From an uncultured Actinomycetota bacterium (GTDB lineage: Bacteria; Actinomycetota; Actinomycetes; S36-B12): a stretch of 64,000 bases of DNA. Position numbers and translations under genes: made by a program. Position 1 is the first letter of the stretch, and each line of letters opens with the position of its first letter. The DNA lies in NCBI GenBank assembly GCA_963749905.1, contig CAVVOF010000006.1, forward strand, positions 208,162-272,161. Reading direction: 5' to 3'. The notes beneath the pieces were generated by a model that saw nothing but the letters and a program-made list of their open reading frames with translations, searched no databases and was not told the origin of the DNA. Shown here one piece after another: positions 1 to 51,738 of this stretch.

Positions 1-1977
1 GAGCACGGCGGAGATGTCCTCGAAGTTGTCCGGCTGCATCGAGCGCAGCAGCGCCCGCATCGGCCCGCCGTCGAGCTGGAACACGCCGAGGGTGTCGCCG
101 CGGGTCAGCAGCTCGTACGTCGGGCGGTCGTCGAGGGTGAGGTCCTCGAGCACGATGGTCTCGCCGCGGTTGGAGTCGATGTGCCGCAGGCAGTCGTCGA
201 GGACGGTCAGGTTGCGCAGGCCGAGGAAGTCCATCTTCAGCAGGCCGAGGGACTCGCAGGCGCCCATGTCGAACTGGGTGATGACCGCGCCGTCCTGCTC
301 GCGCCGCCAGACGGGGATCACGTCGAGGAGCGGCTCACGGCACAGGATGACGCCGGCCGCGTGCACGCCGGGCTGGCGCTTCAGGCCCTCGAGCCCCTTG
401 GCGGTGTCGACCACCTTCTTCGCGTCGGGGTCGGAGTCGTACAGCGCGCGGAACTCCGCGGCCTCGCCGTAGCGTGAGCTGGTCGGGTCGAACGCCCCCG
501 AGAGCGAGACGTCCTTGCCCATCACGGCCGGCGGCATGGCCTTGGTGATCCGGTCGCCGAGGGCGTACGGGTAGCCGAGGACGCGGGCGCTGTCCTTGAC
601 CGCCGCCTTCGCCTTGATCGACCCGTAGGTGATGATCTGCGCAACCCGCTCCTCGCCGTACTTCTCGGTCGCGTAGCGGATCATGTCGCCGCGCCGACGC
701 TCGTCGAAGTCCATGTCGATGTCGGGCATCGAGACGCGCTCGGGATTCAGGAAGCGCTCGAACAGCAGGCCGTGCTTCATCGGGTCGAGCTCGGTGATGC
801 CCAGGGCGTACGCGATCATCGCGCCGGCCGCGGACCCACGACCGGGACCGACCCGGATGCCGTTCTCCTTGGCGTGGCGGACGAGGTCGGCCGTGACGAG
901 GAAGTAGCCCGGGAAGCCCATCTGGATGATGACTCCGACCTCGTACTCGGCCTGCGTGCGGACGGCGTCCGGCACAGCGCCCTTGTAGCGATGGAGCAGG
1001 CCGCGTTCGACCTCCTTGACCAGCCAGGACTCCTCCGACTCACCGGCCGGCACCGGGAACTGCGGCATCAGGTTGGCGCCCTCGGCGAACTCGACCTCGC
1101 ACCGCTCGGCGATGAGCAGCGTGTTCGAGCAGGCCTCGGGCAGCTCGGCCCACACCCGGCGCATCTCGTCGGCCGACTTGACGTAGAAGTCGCGGGCATC
1201 GAACCGGAACCGCTTGGGGTCGTCCATCGTGGTCCGGGTGCCGATGCACAGCAGCACGTCATGGGTGTCGGCGTCGTCGGCGTGCACGTAGTGCAGGTCG
1301 TTGGTGGCCACCAGCGGGAGGTCGAGCTGCTTGGCGATGCGCAGCAGGTCCTCGCGGAAGCGCCGTTCGATGGCCAGCCCGTGGTCCATGAGCTCGACGA
1401 AGTAGTTGCCCTGGCCGAGAATGTCGCGGAAGTCGGCCGCCGCCGCGAGGGCGCGGTCGTACTTGCCGGCCTGCAGCCAGCGGTTCACCTCGCCGCTCGG
1501 GCAGCCGGTGGTGCCGATCAGTCCGGACCCGTAGCGCTCGAGCAGTTCACGGTCGAATCGCGGCTTGAAGTAGTAGCCCTCGAGGCTCGACAGTGAGGAC
1601 AGTCGGAACAGGTTGTGCATGCCGACCGTGTTCTCGGCCCACAGCGTCATGTGGGTGTAGCTCTGCTTGCCGCGACCGGCGCTCGCCTCGTCCGGGGTGC
1701 CTTCGTCGAAGCCGCCGCCGAAGTCGAACGGCCGGCGCTCGAAGCGGCCCTGAGGGGCGTAGTAGCCCTCGAGGCCGATGATCGGCTTGATGCCGTTGGC
1801 GCGGGCCTTGGTGTAGAAGTCGTACGCCCCGTAGAGGTTTCCGTGGTCGGTCATCGCCATGGCCGGCATGCCCAGCCGCTGCGCCTCCTCGAACAGGTCG
1901 GGCAGGCGGGCCGCACCGTCCAGCATCGAGTACTCGGTGTGCACATGGAGGTGCACGAACTGGTCGGACGGGGGCAC
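1..1977 (-). CDS. dnaE: DNA polymerase III alpha subunit (DnaE1), first ~659 codons; gene continues beyond window start
   Basis: Absent from ORF track because it has no in-window stop. My minus-strand translation from GTG at 1977 reads VPPSDQFVHLHVHTEYSMLDG (PHP domain), GPGRGSAAGAMIAYALGITELDP, PDIDMDFDERRRGDMIRY, KRQPGVHAAGVIL and KMDFLGLRNLTV, uninterrupted to position 1. An alternative GTG lies at 1986. Confidence 0.93.
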   Translation of the reverse strand, partial: MPPSDQFVHLHVHTEYSMLDGAARLPDLFEEAQRLGMPAMAMTDHGNLYGAYDFYTKARANGIKPIIGLEGYYAPQGRFERRPFDFGGGFDEGTPDEASAGRGKQSYTHMTLWAENTVGMHNLFRLSSLSSLEGYYFKPRFDRELLERYGSGLIGTTGCPSGEVNRWLQAGKYDRALAAAADFRDILGQGNYFVELMDHGLAIERRFREDLLRIAKQLDLPLVATNDLHYVHADDADTHDVLLCIGTRTTMDDPKRFRFDARDFYVKSADEMRRVWAELPEACSNTLLIAERCEVEFAEGANLMPQFPVPAGESEESWLVKEVERGLLHRYKGAVPDAVRTQAEYEVGVIIQMGFPGYFLVTADLVRHAKENGIRVGPGRGSAAGAMIAYALGITELDPMKHGLLFERFLNPERVSMPDIDMDFDERRRGDMIRYATEKYGEERVAQIITYGSIKAKAAVKDSARVLGYPYALGDRITKAMPPAVMGKDVSLSGAFDPTSSRYGEAAEFRALYDSDPDAKKVVDTAKGLEGLKRQPGVHAAGVILCREPLLDVIPVWRREQDGAVITQFDMGACESLGLLKMDFLGLRNLTVLDDCLRHIDSNRGETIVLEDLTLDDRPTYELLTRGDTLGVFQLDGGPMRALLRSMQPDNFEDISAVL

Positions 1978-2066
1978 GAGCCCCACCCTAGCCAGCGCAG
2001 GTGACGGCCGGGACCGACCACGCCGAGGATCGCCGGCGCGTCCGCAGACCGGCCGTCAGCGGGGGG

Positions 2067-3670: not shown

Positions 3671-4509
3671 CTAGTAGCGCTCCTCCGCCTGCTTGCAGGC
3701 CAGGCACAGCGTTGCCCGCGGGAACGCCTGCAGCCGGTACTTGCCGATCGGCCGTCCGCAGGACTCGCAGATCCCGTACGTGCCCTCCTCGATGCGCTGC
3801 AGCGCGTGCTGGACCTGCTCCATCATGTCCCGCGCGTTGTTCGCCAGGGACATCTCGTGCTCGCGCTCGAAGGTCTTGCTGCCGGCATCGGCCTGGTCGT
3901 CGCCGGCGCCGTCGCCGGAATCCCGGATGAGGTCGGCCAGGCCCTCCTCCGCGGCGGAGACCTCCTCCTGGAGGCGGATCAGGTCCGCGTTGAGCTCGGC
4001 TCGGACGGCCGCGCGCTCCTTGGCCGTCCACGGTGACTCGTCCTCGCGCACCGCCAACCGAGGCCGGGGCGCGGCAACCCGCTTGATCGTCGCCTTCTTC
4101 GCCGGCGCAGCCTTCTTCGCCGGCGCAGCCTTCTTGACCGGTGCGGCCTTCTTCGCGGCGCAGCCTTCTTCGCCGGCGCGGCCTTCTTCACGGGAGCCTT
4201 CTTGACCGGTGCGGCCTTCTTCGCCGGCGCGGCCTTCTTCGCGGGCGCGGCCTTCTTCGCGGGCGCGGCCTTCTTCGCGGGCGCGGCCTTCTTCGCGGGC
4301 GCGGCCTTCTTCGCGGGCGCGGCCTTCTTCGCCGGCGCAGCCTTCTTCGCCGGCGCGGCCTTCTTCACCGGAGCCTTCTTCGCGGGAGCCTTCTTGACCG
4401 GCGCAGCCTTCTTCGCCGGAGCGGCCTTCTTCACCGGAGCCTTCTTCGCGGGTGCGGGCTTCTTCGCCGGAGCTGCCTTCTTGGCCGCCGGCCGAGCAGA
4501 CCTCGCCAT
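3671..4509 (-). CDS. Histone-H1-like (AAPAKK repeat) N-terminus fused to a DksA/TraR C4 zinc-finger domain (Streptomyces DdbA-like); reading frame broken by a 1-nt deletion near 4156
   Basis: ORF 3979..4509 begins MARSARPAAKKAAPAKK and carries the repeats. ORF 3671..4675 ends with KKAAPAKKATIKR, FEREHEMSLANNARDMMEQVQHALQRIEEGTYGICESCGRPIGKYRLQAFPRATLCLACKQ. The two frames join where cttcgccggcg has become cttcgcggcg (4151-4160). Confidence 0.8.
4090..4490 (-). repeat. In-frame 18-nt tandem repeat encoding (A/P)AKKAA units
   Basis: About 20 units. Five identical consecutive 18-mers gcggccttcttcgcgggc occupy 4229-4318, flanked by near-identical variants. Confidence 0.85.
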
Positions 4510-45636: not shown

Positions 45637-45723
45637 GTAGGACCTCCCTAGCCGGGTCCCGCGGGTGCGGGGATGCTCCAAGGATAAGCACACCGGGGGC
45701 CGCGCGAAACCCGTACCCGGGTC

Positions 45724-46944
45724 TCACTGCGGATCCACCAGTCGGGCGGGCCGGACGGCATGGGAGCCGAAGCGGGCGCGCAGCGCGTCCACGGCCACCT
45801 CTGCCTCGCGTCGGCCGTTCTCCGGTTCGCCGAGCAGCAGCTGCCGCGGCGCGTCGTCGGCGTCGGCCAGGCCCTCCATCCGCACGCCGACCAGGCGGAT
45901 CCGCACCCGCTGCAGGCCGAGGGCGTCGTAGAGCCCGCGGACGGTGTCGTAGATCTCCTTGCCCACGTCGGTGGGCGCGGTCAGCGTGCGGGACCGGGTG
46001 ATGGTGCTGAAGTCGGCGAACCGCACCTTCACCGAGACGGTCCGGCCGACGTAGCCGGCCGCCCGCAGCCGGCCGGCGACCTGGTCGGAGAGGGCCAGCA
46101 GCCGCGCGTGGATGACCTCCGGATCGTCGATGTCGTGCTCGAAGGTGGTCTCGTTGCCCACGCTGCGGTCCGGCTCATGCGGATTGACCGCCCGCGGGTC
46201 GCGACCCCAGGCCAGCTCGTGCAGGTGGCCACCGGCCGCCGGCCCGAGGGCCCGCCGAAGGGTGTCCTCCGGGGTGTTCGCGATGTCGCCGACGGTGCGC
46301 AGGCCGAGCCGGGTCAGCTGCTCCTCGGTGCGCTCGCCGACCCCCCACAGGGCGCCGACCGGCAGCGGGTGCAGGAAGTCGATCACCCGGTCGACCGGGA
46401 TGACGAGCAGGCCGTCCGGCTTGGCGCGGGTGGAGGCCAGCTTGGCGACGAACTTGGTCGCCGCCACCCCGACGGAGCAGGTGATCTGCTGCTCGTCCTG
46501 CACCCGGGCGCGGATCAGCTCGGCGATCGCGGTGGGGGTGCCGAGACGGCGCAGCGAGCCGGAGACGTCGAGGAAGGCCTCGTCGAGGCTGAGCGGCTCG
46601 ACGATCGGGGTGATGGAGGCGAACAGCGCCATGACGTTGCGGCTGACCTCGCTGTACGCCCGGTGCTCGGGCTCGAGGACGACGGCCTGCGGGGCCAGCC
46701 GGCGGGCCCGGCTCATCGGCATCGCCGAGTGCACGCCGAGGGCTCGGGCCTCGTAGGTGGCCGACAGCACGACACCGCGGGTGCCGCCGCCGATGATCAC
46801 CGGCCGGCCGTGCAGATCGGGGTGCGCGCGCAGGGTCACGGAGGCGTAGAAGGCGTCCATGTCGACGTGCAGGATGGTGCAGCCGGTGTCGTCGGCACCG
46901 AACCCGACGCGCCCGGTGGGCCGGCGGACCTGACTGCGACTCAT
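45724..46944 (-). CDS. dinB: Y-family DNA polymerase IV (catalytic residues intact)
   Basis: ILHVDMDAFYASV, SLDEAFLDVSG, SVGVATKFVAKLAS. Confidence 0.93.
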   Translation of the reverse strand: MSRSQVRRPTGRVGFGADDTGCTILHVDMDAFYASVTLRAHPDLHGRPVIIGGGTRGVVLSATYEARALGVHSAMPMSRARRLAPQAVVLEPEHRAYSEVSRNVMALFASITPIVEPLSLDEAFLDVSGSLRRLGTPTAIAELIRARVQDEQQITCSVGVAATKFVAKLASTRAKPDGLLVIPVDRVIDFLHPLPVGALWGVGERTEEQLTRLGLRTVGDIANTPEDTLRRALGPAAGGHLHELAWGRDPRAVNPHEPDRSVGNETTFEHDIDDPEVIHARLLALSDQVAGRLRAAGYVGRTVSVKVRFADFSTITRSRTLTAPTDVGKEIYDTVRGLYDALGLQRVRIRLVGVRMEGLADADDAPRQLLLGEPENGRREAEVAVDALRARFGSHAVRPARLVDPQ

Positions 46945-46988
46945 GGGGTCATCCTGCTACGCATCCCTGACGCTCGGCTCATCTCCGG

Positions 46989-49900
46989 CTACCTGCCGCT
47001 GCTGCCCGGACTGGAATGCCAGAGCTTGCGCACCGGCCCACGCTGCGGATCCACGCCCTGCGGCACGATGTCGGCGTACGGCGACTGCCGGAACCCGCTG
47101 GCATGCACCAGCACGCGTCGCCGGGTGGCCTCGGCGGCCGCTGAGCCCGCGTCCTCGGCACCGGCCGGCACGGCGGCCAGCAGTTCCGCGACCCGGCGGG
47201 CCCCACCGGCCAGCCACTCCCGGCGGACGGTGCCGAGCTCCCAGCACCCGGTCGCCCGCAGCGAGACCCCCCTCGGCCCGGTGCGGCGCACCTCACCGCG
47301 CACGAGCAGCAGCCACGAGTCGAAGACGGTGCCCGCGTAGCCGGCCTGGGCGTCCTCGAAGAAGGTCGCGTCCACCGGGCCGGTGGTGTCGTCCAGGGTC
47401 AGGAAGATCACCCGCCGGCCGCTGCGGACCGGCGGCGTCTGGGTCGCCACCTTCACCCCGGCGACCAGCACCTCGCTGGTCGAGCGCTGGCTCAGCAGGT
47501 CGCGTGAGCGCACGAACGGCAGTCCGGCGGCGGCCAGGTCGTCGAGCATCGCGGCGTGGAAGTCGACCACATGCCGGCTGACGTCCATGCCCAGCACCTC
47601 CAGCTCGGCGTGCACCCGCTCGGCCGGGGTCATCTCCGGCAGCCCGGAGGGCGGGGCGGCGGCCACGTCGTCGGCGAGGGCGAGGGTCAGCTGGGCGTGC
47701 CCGGCCGAGCCGCGCGGGGAGCCCCGGCCGATGCCGCGGGCCGACCCACGACCCGACCCACGACCCGACCCACGGGCCGAGCGGGCCGTCCAGCGCTCGA
47801 GATCGGAGACCTGGAGCAGCAGGTCACGGCGAGTGAGCCGGCCGCGACGGCGCACCGAGGGCCGTACGTCCAGCCCGTACAGCGTGTCGAACCCGCCCGC
47901 GACGATCAGCCGCTCGGCGGTCGGCCGGGACATCCCGCTGCGCTGCCAGGCGTCGGCCAGCGAGGCGTACGGCTGGCCGCCGAGGATCCCGGCGACCTCC
48001 TCCTCGCTGATGCCCTTGACATCGGTGAGCGGCACCCGGATGCCGTCGCCGATCTCGCCCTCGGGGCCGACCACCGGCTCCACCCGGTAGACGTCGGAGG
48101 AGGCGTTGACATCGAGGCCAAGGACGGCGATGCCGAAGTTGCGGGCGTCGTCGAGGATCAGCCGCTTCGGGTACATCCCCGGGTCGTGAGTGAGCACGCC
48201 GGCGTAGAACGCCGCGGGGTGGTGCGCCTTCAGCCAGACGGACTGGTAGGTCGGCAGCGCGAACGCCGCCGCATGCGCCTTGCAGAAGCCGAAGGAGGCG
48301 AAGGCCCGCAGCACGTCCCACACCCGCTCCACGGTCGGCAGGTCGTAGCCCTTCCGCAGCGCCGTCGGGTAGAACCACGCCCGGATGTCGTCCTGCCCGT
48401 CCGGGGAGCCGAGCGCCCGGCGGGTCTCGTCGGCCTCGGCGAGGGAGCAGCCGGTCATGGTGGCGACGATGCGCAGCACCTGCTCGTGGAAGACCACCAC
48501 CCCGAAGGTCTCCGCCAGCGCCGGGCGCAGGTCGTGGTGCAGGTACATCGGCTCGCTCCAGCCCTGCCGCGCGCGCAGGAACGGGGTGACCATGTCGGAC
48601 TTCACCGGCCCGGGACGGAACAGCGAGATGTCGATGATGATGTCGTTGAAGGTCTCCGGCGCGAACTTGCCGATCAGCTCCCGCTGGCCGGGCGACTCGA
48701 TCTGGAAGCAGCCGAGGGTGCGGGCGGACTGGATGAGGGCGAAGGTCTCCGGGTCGTCGAGGTCGTGGTCGTCGAGCACGATCCGCTCACCGGTGCTCCG
48801 CTCGATCTCGTCGATCGCGTGGGCCATGGCGGACTGCATGCGGATGCCGAGCACGTCGAGCTTGAGCAGCCCCATCTCCTCGACGTCGTCCTTGTCGAAG
48901 TGGCTCATCGGGAAGCCGGCCGCGCTGCTCTCGACGGGCGTGCGGTCGAGCAGGGAGGCGTCGGAGAGCAGCACCCCGCACGGGTGCAGCGCGACATGCC
49001 GCGGCAGGCCGTCGAGGCGCTCGACCAGGTCGAGGAAGGTGTCGAGCTGTCCGCTGGCCGCCAGCCGGCCGAAGCTCGAGGCCCGCAGCTCCGGCAGGTC
49101 GTTCAGGGCGTTGCGGGCGTCCCGCGCGCGGATGTGCGGGAAGGCCTTGGCGAGCGCGTCGATCTCCCCCATCGGGAAGCCGAGGGCCGCGCCGACGTCG
49201 CGGACGGCATGCCGGACCCGGTAGGTCTCCATCATCGACACCGCGGCGGTGCGCTCGGCGCCGAAGCGGTCGAAGATCCACTGGTAGATCTCCTCGCGCC
49301 GGGCGGACTCGACGTCGATGTCGATGTCCGGCAGGGCCCGCCGCAGCGGGGACAGGAACCGCTCCATGATCAGCCCGTGCCGGATCGGGTCGACTCCGGA
49401 GATGCCGAGCAGGTGGGTGACCAGGCTGCCCGCCCCCGAGCCTCTGGCCGCCACCCGCACGCCGCGCTCCTTGACCATCGAGACGACCTCGGCCACGGTG
49501 AGGAAGTACCCGGAGAACTGCAGGTGGGTGATGGTGCGCAGTTCCTCCTCGAGCCGGGACACCGCCGCGCGCCGGTCGTCGACACGGGGGTACCGCTGCG
49601 GGAGGGCGCCCTCGCACCGGTCCCGCAGCAGCACGTCGGCCCGGGCATTCGCCTCGTCGGGCGGCACCGCCTCCCGCAGCAGGACGTCGAGTTCGGGAAC
49701 GAACACCTCGCCGATGCCGAGGTCGGCCGCCGGGTCGAGGACGCAGTACTCGGCCAGCCGCCGGGTGTCGGCGAGCAGGCGGCGACCGTCGTCGCGCTCC
49801 CCCGCCGCCGTCGCGATCTCCTCGGCGATCTCGGCCATCTGCCGACCGTCCTTCACGAAGGCCTCACCGTTGCCCGCGTCGATGTGCCGGGAGTCGAGGG

Positions 49901-50672
49901 GGACCAGCCGGCGTGCGGAGTCGAGGACGTCCGCGACCCGGGAACCCTCCGGGTCCAGGTAGCGGACCGCGTTCGTCAGCACGACCGGCACCGACTCCTG
50001 CCGCGCCCAGCCGAGCATGGCCGCCGCGGCCGTGGTCGAGTAGCGCAGCCGGCCGGACCGGCCGATCCCGACCGGCTCCCGGTGCGAGGTGACGGCCAGC
50101 GCGAGCCGCCGGCCGAAGATCGCCCGCCAGGGCCGCAGCGCACCGGCGGCCCGGTGGGCGCGCTGGGTGGCCAGCAGCCGGCCGACCTCGGAGTCCACGG
50201 TGAGCAGTGCGACCACGCCCTCGTGGTGCTCGCGCAGCGCCGCCCAGGTCAGCCAGGGCGCACCCCGCTCGGTGTGCGGGCCGGTGTGCGCGGCGGAGAC
50301 CAGCCGGCACAGTGACGCCCAGCCCGGTGCGCTGGCGGCCAGCAGCAGCACCCGCGGCCGGTCCTCCCGCACCCAGGCGCCACCGTGGGCGGGCGACCGC
50401 CGGGCCGGCCGCTCGGCCACCGGTCGGTCGCGCACCCGGTTCTCCGCAGCGGAGGTCGTCTCGGCCATGGCGAGATCGACGCCGAGCACCGGATGGACGC
50501 CCGCCGTGCGGCAGGCCAGCGCCCAGCGCACCGCTCCGTACAGCCCGTCACGATCGGTCAGCCCGATGATGGGCTGATCGAGCTCGGCGGCCCGGGCGAC
50601 CAGCGCGGCGGGCATGGCGGTTCCGTACTGCAGGGAGAACCCGGAGGCCACCTGCAGGTGGCAGAAGGTCAC
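46989..50672 (-). CDS. dnaE2: Error-prone DNA polymerase DnaE2 (C-family), 1227 aa, with an Arg/Gly/Ser-rich insertion
   Basis: The PHP N-terminus FCHLQVASGFSLQYG lacks the HxH of DnaE1. Also PDIDIDVES, FCKAHAAAFA and the C-terminal LWHSSPGSSGR. A second dnaE paralogue (dnaE1) is at 1-1977. Confidence 0.9.
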   Translation of the reverse strand: MTFCHLQVASGFSLQYGTAMPAALVARAAELDQPIIGLTDRDGLYGAVRWALACRTAGVHPVLGVDLAMAETTSAAENRVRDRPVAERPARRSPAHGGAWVREDRPRVLLLAASAPGWASLCRLVSAAHTGPHTERGAPWLTWAALREHHEGVVALLTVDSEVGRLLATQRAHRAAGALRPWRAIFGRRLALAVTSHREPVGIGRSGRLRYSTTAAAAMLGWARQESVPVVLTNAVRYLDPEGSRVADVLDSARRLVPLDSRHIDAGNGEAFVKDGRQMAEIAEEIATAAGERDDGRRLLADTRRLAEYCVLDPAADLGIGEVFVPELDVLLREAVPPDEANARADVLLRDRCEGALPQRYPRVDDRRAAVSRLEEELRTITHLQFSGYFLTVAEVVSMVKERGVRVAARGSGAGSLVTHLLGISGVDPIRHGLIMERFLSPLRRALPDIDIDVESARREEIYQWIFDRFGAERTAAVSMMETYRVRHAVRDVGAALGFPMGEIDALAKAFPHIRARDARNALNDLPELRASSFGRLAASGQLDTFLDLVERLDGLPRHVALHPCGVLLSDASLLDRTPVESSAAGFPMSHFDKDDVEEMGLLKLDVLGIRMQSAMAHAIDEIERSTGERIVLDDHDLDDPETFALIQSARTLGCFQIESPGQRELIGKFAPETFNDIIIDISLFRPGPVKSDMVTPFLRARQGWSEPMYLHHDLRPALAETFGVVVFHEQVLRIVATMTGCSLAEADETRRALGSPDGQDDIRAWFYPTALRKGYDLPTVERVWDVLRAFASFGFCKAHAAAFALPTYQSVWLKAHHPAAFYAGVLTHDPGMYPKRLILDDARNFGIAVLGLDVNASSDVYRVEPVVGPEGEIGDGIRVPLTDVKGISEEEVAGILGGQPYASLADAWQRSGMSRPTAERLIVAGGFDTLYGLDVRPSVRRRGRLTRRDLLLQVSDLERWTARSARGSGRGSGRGSARGIGRGSPRGSAGHAQLTLALADDVAAAPPSGLPEMTPAERVHAELEVLGMDVSRHVVDFHAAMLDDLAAAGLPFVRSRDLLSQRSTSEVLVAGVKVATQTPPVRSGRRVIFLTLDDTTGPVDATFFEDAQAGYAGTVFDSWLLLVRGEVRRTGPRGVSLRATGCWELGTVRREWLAGGARRVAELLAAVPAGAEDAGSAAAEATRRRVLVHASGFRQSPYADIVPQGVDPQRGPVRKLWHSSPGSSGR

Positions 50673-50681
50673 GGTGTCGGG

Positions 50682-51140
50682 TCAGCCGACGTGCCGCAGG
50701 ACGGTCGCGCCCGGCGTGGTCATCGCGGACTGGTGCGGCACGCCGAGCACCTCGCAGACCCGCACGACGAAGGCCTCCGCGTCGCGGACCAGGTCGTCGG
50801 CCTCCCGGTGCGAGACGACGTCGAGGCCCGCCTCCGCCGCCGCCCGCTTGCGGGCGCCGAGGGCGAAGAAGGTGGCCCACTCCCCCAGTTCCGGGGCGAC
50901 CGTGGGCAGCAGCACCCACACGCTGAGGACGCGGGACCGCCGACCCCCCGAGGACCGGCCGCGGGCGGCGAGGACCGCGGCGGCGGCCCGCAGGCCGGCC
51001 AGGTGCGCACAGGCATAGCGCTCCCCGGCGGTGCCGGCCAGGCTCGCCTCGGTCAGGCTGCGGCGAGCGGCCGCCAGCAGGTCGTCCGTGGCTCGGGCGG
51101 TCGTGGCTCGGGCGGTCGTGGCTCGGGCGGTCGTGGGCAT
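50682..51140 (-). CDS. Small alpha-helical protein, HEPN-like (resembles proteins I recall annotated as the SAV_6107 family)
   Basis: ATG 51140 follows aaggaa. Sequence MPTTARATTARATTARATDDLLAAARRSLTEA...ERYACAHLAGLRAAAAVLA...READDLVRDAEAFVVRV. It ends 9 nt upstream of dnaE2. Confidence 0.45.
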   Translation of the reverse strand: MPTTARATTARATTARATDDLLAAARRSLTEASLAGTAGERYACAHLAGLRAAAAVLAARGRSSGGRRSRVLSVWVLLPTVAPELGEWATFFALGARKRAAAEAGLDVVSHREADDLVRDAEAFVVRVCEVLGVPHQSAMTTPGATVLRHVG

Positions 51141-51156
51141 GGCGTTCCTTCGTTCT

Positions 51157-51495
51157 CTAGTCGATGACCCGCACCAGCACCCAGGCGTCGGTCTCGTCGG
51201 GAGACTCGGCCCGGGCCGCGCGGTAGCGGATCCGGCACAGCTCGTACACACCGACGGCACCCGTGGCTGCCGCCGCCTCGACCCGCCAGGCATGTCGCTG
51301 GCCGCTCCCCCGGCCACCGCGGAGCTCCCGCGGCCACCAGGGCACTGGCTCGACCCATGTCGCTGTGACGGCCCGCACGACATAGCGGCGACCCCGCCAG
51401 CGGAACCACGCCGGCGCCCCGTCCTGCCCCGCCCCCACCTCGGTCCCCACCTCGGTCCCCACCTCGATCGGCTGCGACCGGTAGCGGCGACTCAC
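51157..51495 (-). CDS. Small uncharacterised protein (resembles what I recall as DUF6504)
   Basis: GTG 51495. Sequence ...APAWFRWRGRRYVVRAVTATWVEPVPWW...HAWRVEA...GVYELC...DAWVLVRVID. It is the first gene downstream of the LexA box. Confidence 0.45.
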   Translation of the reverse strand: MSRRYRSQPIEVGTEVGTEVGAGQDGAPAWFRWRGRRYVVRAVTATWVEPVPWWPRELRGGRGSGQRHAWRVEAAAATGAVGVYELCRIRYRAARAESPDETDAWVLVRVID

Positions 51496-51620
51496 CTGCG
51501 CCCCGCCCCTCCGCTGGACCCATTGCCGCCGGACCCGTCACCACCGACCCTGAGTCGCCGGGGTCGGGGTCGAGGCGACCCCGGCGACCGAGGGTGACTG
51601 ACGCCCAGCCGCGAATCCGG

Positions 51621-51666
51621 GCCTCAGACCTGTATTCGAACACCTGTTCGAATACAGGTCTGAGGC
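51621..51666. promoter_or_regulatory. Perfect 46-bp palindrome containing a consensus actinobacterial LexA (SOS) box
   Basis: gcctcagacctgtattcgaaca-cc-tgttcgaatacaggtctgaggc. The core TCGAAC-ACCT-GTTCGA is at 51636-51651. It lies between the divergent dnaE2 operon and the GGDEF-EAL gene. Confidence 0.8.
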
Positions 51667-51738
51667 TAGACCGCGCCCCTGACACCCGTCAACCCCTCCG
51701 GCGGGGCTTCCACCCCGTCGGCGGGGCATGATGGCCGG

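Follow-up and report, generated by a model that had tools for sequence, protein, structure and literature searches.

A probable split-ImuB translesion-synthesis operon with an HEPN gene, behind a LexA box in an uncultured actinobacterium

In the canonical mutasome, DnaE2 works with ImuA (or ImuA') and ImuB. Which proteins, then, accompany DnaE2 in an SOS-type operon in which these partners appear to be missing? The question is raised by a 64-kb stretch of DNA from an uncultured actinobacterium (the window), in which an initial annotation recognized a LexA box followed by two small proteins, DnaE2 and DinB. In our analysis, the operon is probably repressed by LexA and encodes a translesion-synthesis module of the DnaE2B-PolY-ImuB-C-RecA type, one that is independent of ImuA and ImuB and has a "split" ImuB.

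The polymerase genes and the separate ImuB-C domain

The four genes are co-directional on the minus strand, with intergenic gaps of 16, 9 and 44 nt; this reading of the open reading frames reproduced the annotated layout in full. The first gene (51157..51495, GTG start) encodes a protein of 112 aa. It had been considered uncharacterised, but a Pfam search identified it as an ImuB-C domain protein (DUF6504, E=1e-17). The same family matched residues 428-500 of a bona fide Rhizobium ImuB from an imuA-imuB-dnaE2 cassette, as well as five published stand-alone ImuB-C proteins (E=1e-13 to 1e-20); identity to the ImuB-C of Tessaracoccus lapidicaptus was 40% (E=3e-10). Six strands make up its all-beta AF2 model (pLDDT 79), which found no match in a fold search of the PDB, in line with the "novel beta-barrel" reported in PMC12926913. 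By sequence, the protein is identified as a stand-alone ImuB C-terminal domain, and ImuB function would thus be split between ImuB-C and DinB, rather than absent.

The reported lack of ImuA' and ImuB consequently held in part: a full-length, inactive ImuB was not found in the window, but its C-terminal domain is present as the first gene. Neither a second Y-family gene nor a further DUF6504 ORF was found within the 64 kb. It could still be proposed that DnaE2 has a new accessory set, in which two truly novel small proteins take the places of ImuA' and ImuB, since the window carries no dead Y-family gene, and no ImuA-like gene occurs among the genes identified there. Moreover, NCBIfam names neither small protein, and the HEPN gene, the second of the operon, goes unmentioned in the polymerase literature searched. 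We nevertheless regard this proposal as unlikely and, for the first protein, as largely refuted already; of the two, the HEPN protein alone is left unexplained, and the architecture of DnaE2, active PolY and stand-alone ImuB-C has been published (PMC6511836; PMC12926913). The description of the set as functionally undescribed is therefore withdrawn for all but the HEPN gene. The pairing of DnaE2 with non-canonical partners is itself real, and constitutes a conserved cassette behind an SOS box.

The third gene (46989..50672, minus strand) encodes a polymerase of 1227 aa with PHP, Pol3-alpha, finger, HhH and OB domains in Pfam. The protein shares 42% identity with the N-terminal 400 aa of Janibacter indicus DnaE2B and 46-51% with Streptomyces and Nonomuraea dnaE copies, versus only ~30% with proteobacterial DnaE2. 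The catalytic PDIDID motif is retained and the polymerase aspartates are intact. QLTLAL was read as a candidate clamp motif, and the C-terminus (...SSPGSSGR) lacks the SRDF[H/R] motif. The protein is thereby classified as a DnaE2B-type Pol III alpha paralogue, an assignment based on pairwise similarity and not on a tree. A second replicative-type DnaE, i.e., a paralogue of DnaE1 and not a translesion polymerase of the DnaE2 kind, would accord with the NCBIfam scores (628 bits for DnaE1 and 611 for error-prone DnaE2, both below their cut-offs of 1002 and 939) and with the RefSeq label of the Streptomyces relatives, "dnaE: DNA polymerase III subunit alpha". This is very improbable, however: a separate DnaE1 fragment with an intact PHP HxH motif (HLHVHT) lies at window positions 1-1986, whereas the corresponding motif of the present protein is degenerate (HLQVAS). 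Its gene is located behind a LexA box and adjoins those of ImuB-C and DinB, the proteins most similar to it are classed as DnaE2B, and replication in Streptomyces does not require dnaE2 (PMC3273824).

The fourth gene (45724..46944, minus strand) encodes a Y-family polymerase (DinB, PolY-core) of 406 aa, with Pfam IMS and IMS_C domains and an NCBIfam Pol IV score of 407 bits, above the 367-bit cut-off. Both catalytic motifs, DMDAFYASV and SLDEAFLDV, are present, as had been noted. The C-terminal region carries a clamp motif, QLLLGE, and a RecA-NT-like motif (EAEVAVDALRARFGSHAVRPARL). The protein shares 53% identity over 381 aa, including the C-terminal tail, with the PolY from T. lapidicaptus that features in the published tetramer model, and 36% with the N-terminally truncated, inactive DinB2 of Streptomyces. 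It is predicted to be a DinB-type polymerase that is active and has both a clamp-binding and a RecA-NT-like tail. Directly 3' of its stop codon, a consensus scan detected a weak terminator-like hairpin (45688..45706, minus strand; 5-bp stem, poor T-run). A co-directional DUF3040 gene (Pfam; 45636-45253, minus strand) is located further 3', and such a gene lies 3' of DinB in related loci too.

The order of the four genes is conserved in many actinobacterial lineages, with tight spacing and a preceding promoter and SOS box. Of the 70 distinct HEPN loci whose flanks were long enough to judge, 18 displayed the order ImuB-C, HEPN, DnaE, DinB, and 17 of these carried a perfect LexA box. Distant DUF6504 loci retained this order as well.

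The promoter, the LexA box and the structured leader

The predicted promoter (51663..51692, minus strand) comprises a -35 element, TTGACG (51692-51687), an 18-nt spacer and a -10 element, TAGCCT (51668-51663). Actinobacterial -10 elements follow a TANNNT rule. A generic sigma-70 scan detected no promoter here, and the call is therefore founded on this rule and on conservation: TTGACG and TAnnnT recur at equal spacing 5' of the LexA box in most of 18 aligned related loci. The LexA (SOS) box itself, TCGAACACCTGTTCGA, was confirmed at the annotated position (51636-51651). It is the sole perfect match to the consensus in the whole window, and none occurred in any of 100 shuffles. It lies 11 nt 3' of the -10 hexamer and thus near the expected transcription start. 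A perfect box was located at the same place in 18 of the 19 distinct full or minimal operon loci with enough flank, and 28-63 nt 5' of the leader described below in 48 of 51 loci found by the leader pattern. The remaining three were chance matches in other sequence. From the box and the conserved -35/-10/box arrangement, the operon is predicted to be under LexA/SOS control. In this genome the box is embedded in a perfect palindrome of 46 bp (51621..51666), with 15 extra complementary bases on each side, as opposed to 0-7 in all other loci; the palindrome is specific to this genome.

Between the box and the first gene, covariation revealed a conserved two-hairpin 5' leader of ~85 nt (51544..51628, minus strand). 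Hairpin P1 has the loop GGAUUCGCGGCU, and hairpin P2 has a stem of 13 to 18 bp and the loop CCUCGACCC. In an alignment of 30 distinct sequences, 93.5% of the cells were paired, and compensatory changes occurred in 23 of the 30 pairs; this covariation was reached by 0 of 500 shuffles, and slid controls were at most 52% paired. A G-U pair of the minus-strand leader was retained in 29 of the 30 sequences. The covariance model also matched one further locus (L009, 52 bits), but the scanned Streptomyces HEPN loci gave no match 5' of this gene. The leader has no match in Rfam, and is not mentioned in the searchable literature.

The HEPN gene within the cassette

The second gene (50682..51140, minus strand) encodes a protein of 152 aa that belongs to the HEPN_SAV_6107 family (PF18726, E=1e-33). 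The best PDB matches of its AF2 model (pLDDT 84) were HEPN proteins (2hsb, 1wol and 1ufb), which upholds the earlier HEPN-like designation. The accompanying statement that an Rx4-6H motif is absent was correct for the canonical position in helix 4, but a literal R41-x4-H46 (RYACAH) occurs at the start of helix 2. It is invariant in the alignment of the family, which is highly conserved (mean column identity, 60%). The family is listed as non-conserved for the Rx4-6H motif (PMC3710099), and the protein is judged from its sequence to be a non-catalytic HEPN fold. Many HEPN domains are RNase toxins (PMC3710099), and weak PADLOC matches to the candidate system PDC-M05B (E=3e-5) might hint at a toxin or anti-phage defence module, placed by chance beside the polymerase genes. 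The absence of the canonical motif, both in the alignment and in the published listing, makes this highly improbable, as does the lack of an MNT or antitoxin partner. Furthermore, Actinobacteria carry the HEPN gene as part of the core genome, in one copy and at a constant chromosomal position, and not on a variable island.

A more serious question is whether the HEPN gene is a syntenic bystander: an old gene of Actinobacteria, fixed in its place near the dcw cluster and without a part in translesion synthesis, around which the polymerase genes were inserted, and which is merely co-transcribed with them. In ∼60 Streptomyces loci, the gene has an unchanged syntenic context (HEPN, SAM-methyltransferase, DUF3040, TgpA, DUF58, MoxR, rsmH) but no polymerase gene, and a loose SOS box was found in only 2 of the 60. 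Similarly, the consecutive accessions of the Tessaracoccus ImuB-C, DnaE2B and PolY proteins suggest that no HEPN gene intervenes, and it appears to be missing from that operon. The HEPN protein is therefore not an obligatory subunit. Outside Streptomyces, however, its gene always forms part of a LexA-controlled unit, with gaps of 9-30 nt or a 4-nt overlap with dnaE2. It directly follows ImuB-C, with the order kept, in 7 of 7 informative and diverse look-ups, and all related loci that were sampled have it between ImuB-C and DnaE2. In one locus (L136), it moves with the cassette, in the same gene order, to a different chromosomal neighbourhood. In minimal loci, consisting of a LexA box, HEPN and DinB, it is the first gene of the pair. 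We thus consider a bystander role quite possible but less likely than not. Since HEPN still accompanies DinB in loci that lack DnaE2 and ImuB-C, its partner, if it has one in the module, would more likely be DinB than DnaE2. The term HEPN is absent from PMC12926913 and its supplements, and no paper of the literature searched contains "HEPN" and "dnaE2" together; the gene is the only accessory of the cassette still undescribed in the searchable literature.

Relation to known systems and a proposed mechanism

The cassette matches a DnaE2B-PolY-ImuB-C-RecA module already described computationally in Actinobacteria. DnaE2 modules that lack ImuA and ImuB, and combine RecA with an active PolY and a stand-alone ImuB-C, were reported in 2019 (PMC6511836, NAR). 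They were given the name "DnaE2B-PolY-ImuBC-RecA system" in PMC12926913 (NAR 2026), and published examples are from T. lapidicaptus, J. indicus, Kineococcus radiotolerans, Ornithinimicrobium pratense and Nocardioides euryhalodurans. In addition to the above similarities of ImuB-C (40%), the DnaE2B-type polymerase (42%, N-terminal 400 aa) and PolY (53%), both are actinobacterial, their DinB is an active PolY-core protein ending in a RecA-NT tail, and neither imuA nor imuB occurs among the genes identified nearby. Unlike the four-protein description, the window includes HEPN_SAV_6107 between ImuB-C and DnaE2B, although one-gene gaps between accessions suggest that 3 of the 5 published examples also have it. 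The LexA box, promoter and structured leader do not figure in the accessible part of that description, and recA, which belongs to the module, is absent from the 64-kb window.

The canonical ImuA(ImuA')-ImuB-DnaE2 mutasome of Mycobacterium tuberculosis, Caulobacter and Pseudomonas is likewise LexA-controlled, with a DnaE2 paralogue lacking PHP proofreading residues, a Y-family protein bearing clamp and RecA-NT-like motifs, and an ImuB-C domain. In contrast, the Y-family subunit in the window is predicted to be catalytically intact, ImuB-C is a separate polypeptide, no ImuA or ImuA' occurs among the genes identified, DnaE2 is of group B without the C-terminal SRDF[H/R], and an HEPN gene is added. 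The Streptomyces dnaE2-dinB2 (dinP) operon also combines an SOS box with a DnaE2B-type polymerase followed by a Y-family gene, and its DinB2 shares the QLLL motif and RecA-NT-like tail. That DinB2 is truncated and inactive, however, ImuB-C is not reported there (PMC6511836), and the Streptomyces HEPN_SAV_6107 gene lies elsewhere, at a locus that has no SOS box. LexA binding and induction by UV and mitomycin C are experimental findings for that operon (PMC3273824; PMC9380542). The lexA-imuB-C-polY operons of Geobacter and relatives (PMC3765255; PMC6511836) share a stand-alone ImuB-C that is co-transcribed, under SOS control, with an active Y-family polymerase, but belong to a different phylum and have neither DnaE2 nor an HEPN gene. 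Their ImuB-C sequences are too distant to match DUF6504 (no match in two ImuB-C proteins from DnaE2X systems).

When dnaE2, which is of group DnaE2B, was deleted in S. coelicolor, UV survival and mutagenesis both stayed the same (PMC3273824), and a mutagenic role of the module is therefore only putative. By analogy with ImuA'-ImuB-DnaE2, and from AlphaFold models published by others (AF-multimer and AF3 models of the DnaE2B-PolY-ImuBC-RecA complex, tetramer models among them; PMC12926913), a mechanism may be proposed. DNA damage would lead to RecA-stimulated cleavage of LexA and derepression of the operon. DinB would then act as the organising Y-family subunit, binding the beta clamp and RecA, the latter standing in for ImuA. 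ImuB-C would dock on the PHP domain of DnaE2B, much as it contacts the DnaE2 PHP domain in models of the canonical mutasome (same source). For lesion bypass, the complex would deliver either or both of the polymerases to primer ends that have stalled. Most speculatively, HEPN_SAV_6107 would serve as a non-catalytic accessory or regulator of the polymerase module, and the structured leader would add post-transcriptional control of polymerase dose.

Control region and structured leader of the operon

The operon lies on the minus strand and consists of four genes, separated by gaps of 16, 9 and 44 nt. In order, these encode a 112-aa protein assigned by Pfam to DUF6504 (51495..51157; E=1e-17), a 152-aa protein of Pfam family HEPN_SAV_6107 (PF18726; 51140..50682; E=1e-33), a 1227-aa polymerase with a complete set of Pol III alpha domains (50672..46989; Pfam) and a 406-aa Y-family polymerase with IMS/IMS_C domains (46944..45724; Pfam). 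The LexA box TCGAACACCTGTTCGA at 51636-51651 is a perfect TCGAAC-N4-GTTCGA and the single such match in the window; a perfect box appeared in none of 100 dinucleotide-preserving shuffles. The four-gene cassette behind a LexA box, as proposed in the initial annotation, was thereby borne out in its coordinates, gaps, box and gene families (Pfam, NCBIfam).

A -35 hexamer (51692-51687) and a -10 hexamer (51668-51663), both in the minus-strand direction, form the predicted operon promoter, with the LexA box 11 nt downstream of the latter. The arrangement of TTGACG, an 18-nt spacer and TAnnnT, with the LexA box just past the -10 element, is kept across the aligned upstream regions. A generic sigma-70 scan returned no promoter, and the promoter call therefore rests on cross-locus conservation. 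The LexA box, a predicted site, shares its position with those of related loci and conforms to the consensus of the actinobacterial SOS regulon.

Downstream of the LexA box and ahead of the first gene, a conserved 5' leader with two hairpins was identified (51544-51628, minus strand), the invariant loops of which are GGAUUCGCGGCU and CCUCGACCC. The same leader was found in related loci L001, L006-L010, L017, L019, L021, L083 and L092-L131, including loci that carry only the HEPN and DinB genes. A search pattern built on the two loops retrieved 40 more metagenomic loci. Among the 51 pattern-matching loci, 48 carry a LexA box 28-63 nt upstream of the leader and the same genes downstream, while the remaining three matched other sequence by chance. 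RNAalifold analysis of 30 distinct leader sequences, in which the search pattern dictated the loops but left the stems free, returned two hairpins with 93.5% of cells paired and compensatory changes in 23 of the 30 base pairs. This pairing and covariation was equalled by none of 500 shuffles, and slid controls were at most 52% paired. A G-U pair is kept in 29 of the 30 sequences, which argues for an RNA on the sense strand of the operon.

A covariance model of the leader recovered it in L009, a related locus outside the training set (52 bits), and weakly in two others (L014 and L032), but gave nothing upstream of Streptomyces HEPN genes. No Rfam family matches the leader, the search returning just microRNA noise on the palindrome. 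On visual inspection, neither loop-loop nor loop-to-Shine-Dalgarno pairing had convincing complementarity. The palindrome in question, perfect over 46 bp (51621-51666), encloses the LexA box and adds 15 complementary bases to it at either end; in related loci the box is extended by 0-7 bases, and the 46-bp form occurs in this genome alone. The right arm of the palindrome shares sequence with the 5' strand of P1, one of the two leader hairpins, such that an alternative pairing is conceivable.

The only 100%-perfect tandem repeats in the window (TRF score of at least 60) are three, each in-frame within the polymerase operon, a clustering noted post hoc and on small numbers: (TTARA)3 in the HEPN protein (51087-51136), EVGT repeats in ImuB-C (51433-51466) and GSGR repeats in a DnaE2 linker (47741-47774).

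A stand-alone ImuB-C and two polymerases

The first gene encodes the C-terminal domain of ImuB (ImuB-C) as a separate protein beside dnaE2. This domain was first defined by Aravind and colleagues, and solo copies beside DinB and DnaE2 have already been noted (PMC3765255). For this protein 60 close homologues were found, and a profile search of 1.8 billion proteins yielded 1115 representatives; the best 150 of these were small stand-alone proteins only and revealed no ImuB fusion. The family is characterized by the motifs FRWRGRRY...W.E..PWW...WRVEA...G.Y.L...W.L...D. Residues 428-500 of the ImuB from the imuA-imuB-dnaE2 cassette of Rhizobium plasmid pTiB21_90 match DUF6504 with 24.2 bits (E=4e-5), which is exactly the gathering score. 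Nine ImuB-C proteins listed in PMC12926913 were also scanned: all five from "DnaE2B-PolY-ImuBC-RecA" systems matched DUF6504 (E=1e-13 to 1e-20), the two scanned from "DnaE2B-ImuBC" dimers matched weakly, and the two distant DnaE2X-system proteins gave no match. In BLASTP, the protein showed 40% identity to the ImuB-C of Tessaracoccus lapidicaptus (E=3e-10). An hhalign comparison of the DUF6504 alignment with a single ImuB C-terminus aligned just 26 columns (70% probability), and the link to ImuB-C consequently rests on the Pfam matches and BLASTP.

The AF2 model of this protein is all-beta, with six strands (pLDDT 79). Its profile matched no PDB sequence even at E<=10, and Foldseek found nothing meaningful for the model in the PDB. 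In PMC12926913, ImuB-C is described as a beta-barrel of novel fold, with which the absence of a PDB counterpart for the modelled protein agrees, rather than proving it independently.

The claim that the cassette has no ImuB was thus half right, because ImuB is split, not absent: its C-terminal domain is present as the first gene, and the window contains no full-length dead ImuB. Of the two small proteins originally described as uncharacterised, ImuB-C loses that status through the Pfam matches and BLASTP, whereas the HEPN protein retains it in the sense of being absent from the polymerase literature searched; NCBIfam has a model for neither.

The fourth gene product passes the NCBIfam cut-off for Pol IV (407 versus 367 bits) and keeps the catalytic motifs DMDAFYASV and SLDEAFLDV, so that the proposed active Pol IV beside DnaE2 was upheld. 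It lacks a DUF6504 region and is the sole Y-family gene in the window. Its C-terminal tail reads RQLLLGEP...EAEVAVDALRARFGSHAVRPARL, in which QLLLGE resembles the DinB clamp-binding motif (cf. QLVLGL of E. coli DinB). The remainder, EAEVAVDALRARFGSHAVRPARL, corresponds, as judged by alignment, to the RecA-N-terminus-like motif of PMC6511836. With the T. lapidicaptus PolY used in a published tetramer model, the protein shares 53% identity across 381 residues, and the tails of the two align. Identity to Streptomyces DinB2, an inactive and N-terminally truncated protein, is 36%, the tail again being conserved.

The DnaE-type polymerase falls below both NCBIfam cut-offs, namely DnaE1 (628 versus 1002 bits) and error-prone DnaE2 (611 versus 939). 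It shares 42% identity with Janibacter indicus DnaE2B over the 400 N-terminal residues of the latter, 46-51% with the additional dnaE copies found in Streptomyces, Embleya and Nonomuraea, and only ∼30% with proteobacterial error-prone DnaE2. Its PHP motif is degenerate (HLQVAS), PDIDID is kept, and QLTLAL is a candidate internal clamp motif under the definitions of PMC3919608. The C-terminus ends in ...RKLWHSSPGSSGR; the SRDF[H/R] of the DnaE2A type (PMC3919608) is absent. From this similarity and the gene context, we infer that the polymerase is a member of the DnaE2B clade. Another gene for Pol III alpha, represented by its N-terminal 662 aa (1-1986, minus strand) and running past the window start, is located ∼45 kb from the operon; its PHP motif is intact (HLHVHT), and it is presumably the replicative DnaE1.

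Matches to dnaE were also observed in 149 records of Streptomyces plasmids, the best of them including linear plasmids. In the one plasmid locus profiled for dnaE neighbours (L004, from Streptomyces sp. NBC_00582), dnaE is followed by a short "hypothetical protein" gene that matches DinB. LexA regulates the S. venezuelae plasmid operon that consists of a "hypothetical protein plus error-prone polymerase" (PMC9380542).

The HEPN gene and its context across Actinobacteria

The second gene belongs to a family with more than 4900 matches and a mean column identity of 60%; the best match in a scan of one genome per species reached 76%, so that the source genome is not among the representatives scanned. 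By the same scan, the source is an actinobacterium near uncultured "Actinomycetes" and Nanopelagicales-like MAGs, and an exact look-up of the HEPN protein retrieved no contig. The AF2 model (pLDDT 84) is a four-helix up-down HEPN bundle, and its top Foldseek matches in the PDB, 2hsb, 1wol and 1ufb, are all HEPN proteins, with a target-normalised TM-score of 0.76 for 2hsb and top-match E-values of only 0.02-0.8. The lack of an Rx4-6H motif reported in the initial annotation was confirmed in both alignment and model for the canonical position: the motif is absent from the last helix throughout the family alignment, and helix 4, which begins ...HREADDLVR, contains an invariant R112 with no conserved His after it. 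The published HEPN census likewise enters HEPN_SAV_6107 as "No" for the Rx4-6H motif, and gives no gene context (PMC3710099). A literal, family-invariant Rx4H (RYAxAH; R41-x4-H46) occurs at the N-terminus of helix 2. A role as a defence system was rejected, as the PADLOC matches were weak, a partner gene was lacking and the locus is a fixed part of the core.

To survey gene context, one genome per species was scanned with the family alignment and the loci were profiled with our own HMMs, giving 70 distinct HEPN loci with enough flank. The order LexA box, ImuB-C, HEPN, DnaE and DinB was observed in 17 of these, with one further locus lacking only a perfect LexA box; a LexA box followed by HEPN and DinB alone was found in one (L001; cf. 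L083). In the other 51, all from Streptomyces or close relatives, the HEPN gene stands alone. Separate look-ups of diverse DUF6504 proteins placed HEPN directly downstream of ImuB-C, and DnaE after it, in all seven informative cases, in one of which the HEPN gene ends 4 nt inside the following one. In another of the seven (L136), the four genes occur in a different chromosomal neighbourhood.

The HEPN-alone loci (within L016-L085; e.g., L056, 8902-10434) share one syntenic order, in which the HEPN gene is followed by genes for a SAM-dependent methyltransferase, DUF3040, TgpA, DUF58, MoxR and rsmH. None of them contains a polymerase gene, and the region upstream of the HEPN gene in Streptomyces essentially lacks an SOS box, a loose pattern being found in 2 of 60 loci. 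The same methyltransferase is located between DnaE2 and DinB in other lineages (L086 and L089). In the window, MoxR, DUF58 and TgpA genes are present, together with a dcw cell-division cluster from mraZ/rsmH to ftsZ (judged from gene translations); a DUF3040 gene lies directly downstream of dinB, and a gene for a large PAS-GGDEF-EAL protein is divergent from the operon. The HEPN locus appears to be an ancient synteny block that has undergone differential gene loss. Near dcw/ileS, an 18-bp tandem array (4092-4487; 22.7 copies, 83% matches) is positioned between called genes.

These distributions bear on whether HEPN_SAV_6107 is simply a syntenic bystander of the polymerase genes, an explanation to which we give a real, although minority, chance. 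It draws on the Streptomyces loci, where the gene occupies its own syntenic position with no polymerase genes and essentially no SOS box; its consistent place between ImuB-C and DnaE in the look-ups weighs on the other side. Since the gene is kept in the operon loci and yet occurs separately elsewhere, it is best described as an operon member that is conserved without being obligatory. Its retention with DinB where DnaE2 and ImuB-C are missing points to DinB, or general SOS physiology, as its partner rather than DnaE2. In two pairs of related loci (L097/L121 and L101/L131), the leader precedes HEPN, DnaE and DinB, with ImuB-C not detected upstream; these lineages may not need ImuB-C, may have a diverged form of it or may encode it at another site.

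In the accession numbers of PMC12926913, there is room for one gene between ImuB-C and DnaE2B in Janibacter, Kineococcus and Ornithinimicrobium, and for none in Tessaracoccus; this numbering suggests that the gap is filled by the HEPN gene. The term "HEPN" is absent from the text and supplements of that survey, and the literature searched contained no paper mentioning both "HEPN" and "dnaE2".

Relation to known DnaE2 systems

In canonical ImuA'-ImuB-DnaE2 systems, ImuB is a dead Y-family protein with a fused ImuB-C, whereas the window encodes an intact DinB and a separate 112-aa ImuB-C. Similarly, the DnaE2A of the canonical mutasome ends in SRDF[H/R] (PMC3919608), which the present polymerase lacks, and its score of 611 bits lies below the 939 of the error-prone DnaE2 model. 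No ImuA or ImuA' gene was found among the operon genes or annotated neighbours, and no second Y-family ORF or other DUF6504 ORF in the 64-kb window; recA is not among its genes. Timinskas and Venclovas (2019) described ImuA-less variants composed of active or inactive PolY, stand-alone ImuB-C and/or DnaE2 (PMC6511836). According to the 2026 survey (PMC12926913), DnaE2 divides into groups A, B and X, and DnaE2B genomes lack imuA and imuB; its "DnaE2B-PolY-ImuB-C-RecA" module is confined to actinobacteria and gave good AF-multimer tetramer models for five species. With this module the operon shares a stand-alone ImuB-C next to dnaE2 and an intact PolY with a RecA-NT-like tail. The accessory set had been called functionally undescribed, which remains apt for the HEPN gene only, the ImuB-C/PolY/DnaE2B class being covered by PMC6511836 and PMC12926913.

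The cassette is very probably an SOS module of the DnaE2B-PolY-ImuB-C type. Direct observation covers what the genes are and how they are ordered, the promoter with its SOS box, and the conservation of all these. Judging from the published models and the canonical mutasome, LexA cleavage would derepress the operon, the DinB tail would recruit the clamp and RecA, ImuB-C would dock DnaE2B via the PHP domain, and the assembly would carry out lesion bypass. More speculatively, the HEPN protein may serve as an accessory or regulator, and the leader may tune expression. In Streptomyces, the dnaE2-dinB2 operon is SOS-inducible, and deletion of dnaE2 had no UV or mutagenesis phenotype (Tsai et al.; PMC3273824). 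The null mutant without a phenotype counts against a mutagenic role. The related dnaE2-dinP operon of Streptomyces binds LexA and responds to mitomycin C with inductions of ∼30-fold and 14-fold (PMC9380542), which gives indirect support to LexA binding and damage induction of the present operon.

It is a tentative and rather unlikely proposition that HEPN_SAV_6107 is an integral fifth component of actinobacterial SOS translesion modules and that the new structured leader governs the operon. In that event, the HEPN protein would serve the DinB-only and the DnaE2B-ImuB-C-DinB versions alike, as an adaptor or regulator, and the leader RNA might be bound by this non-catalytic protein. Error-prone polymerases would thereby come under an additional, post-transcriptional layer of control.

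In mycobacteria, DnaE2-dependent mutagenesis is a driver of drug resistance, and ImuA'-ImuB-DnaE2 is the system with which it is generally identified. This locus offers a clean natural instance of the other arrangement, so far predicted only computationally, in which an active DinB is combined with a stand-alone ImuB-C and DnaE2B. To a specialist aware of the 2019 and 2026 surveys, the cassette itself is unsurprising; the new handles are the HEPN gene and the covarying leader. The former lies within the operon, is omitted from published descriptions and also pairs with DinB alone, and the latter adds an RNA with strong covariation ahead of the operon. If the HEPN protein is neither a subunit nor a regulator, the locus is just an ordinary representative of an already catalogued class. 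If it is one or the other, the composition of the mutasome would need revision, and a first function would be assigned to a family conserved across Actinobacteria, Streptomyces included.
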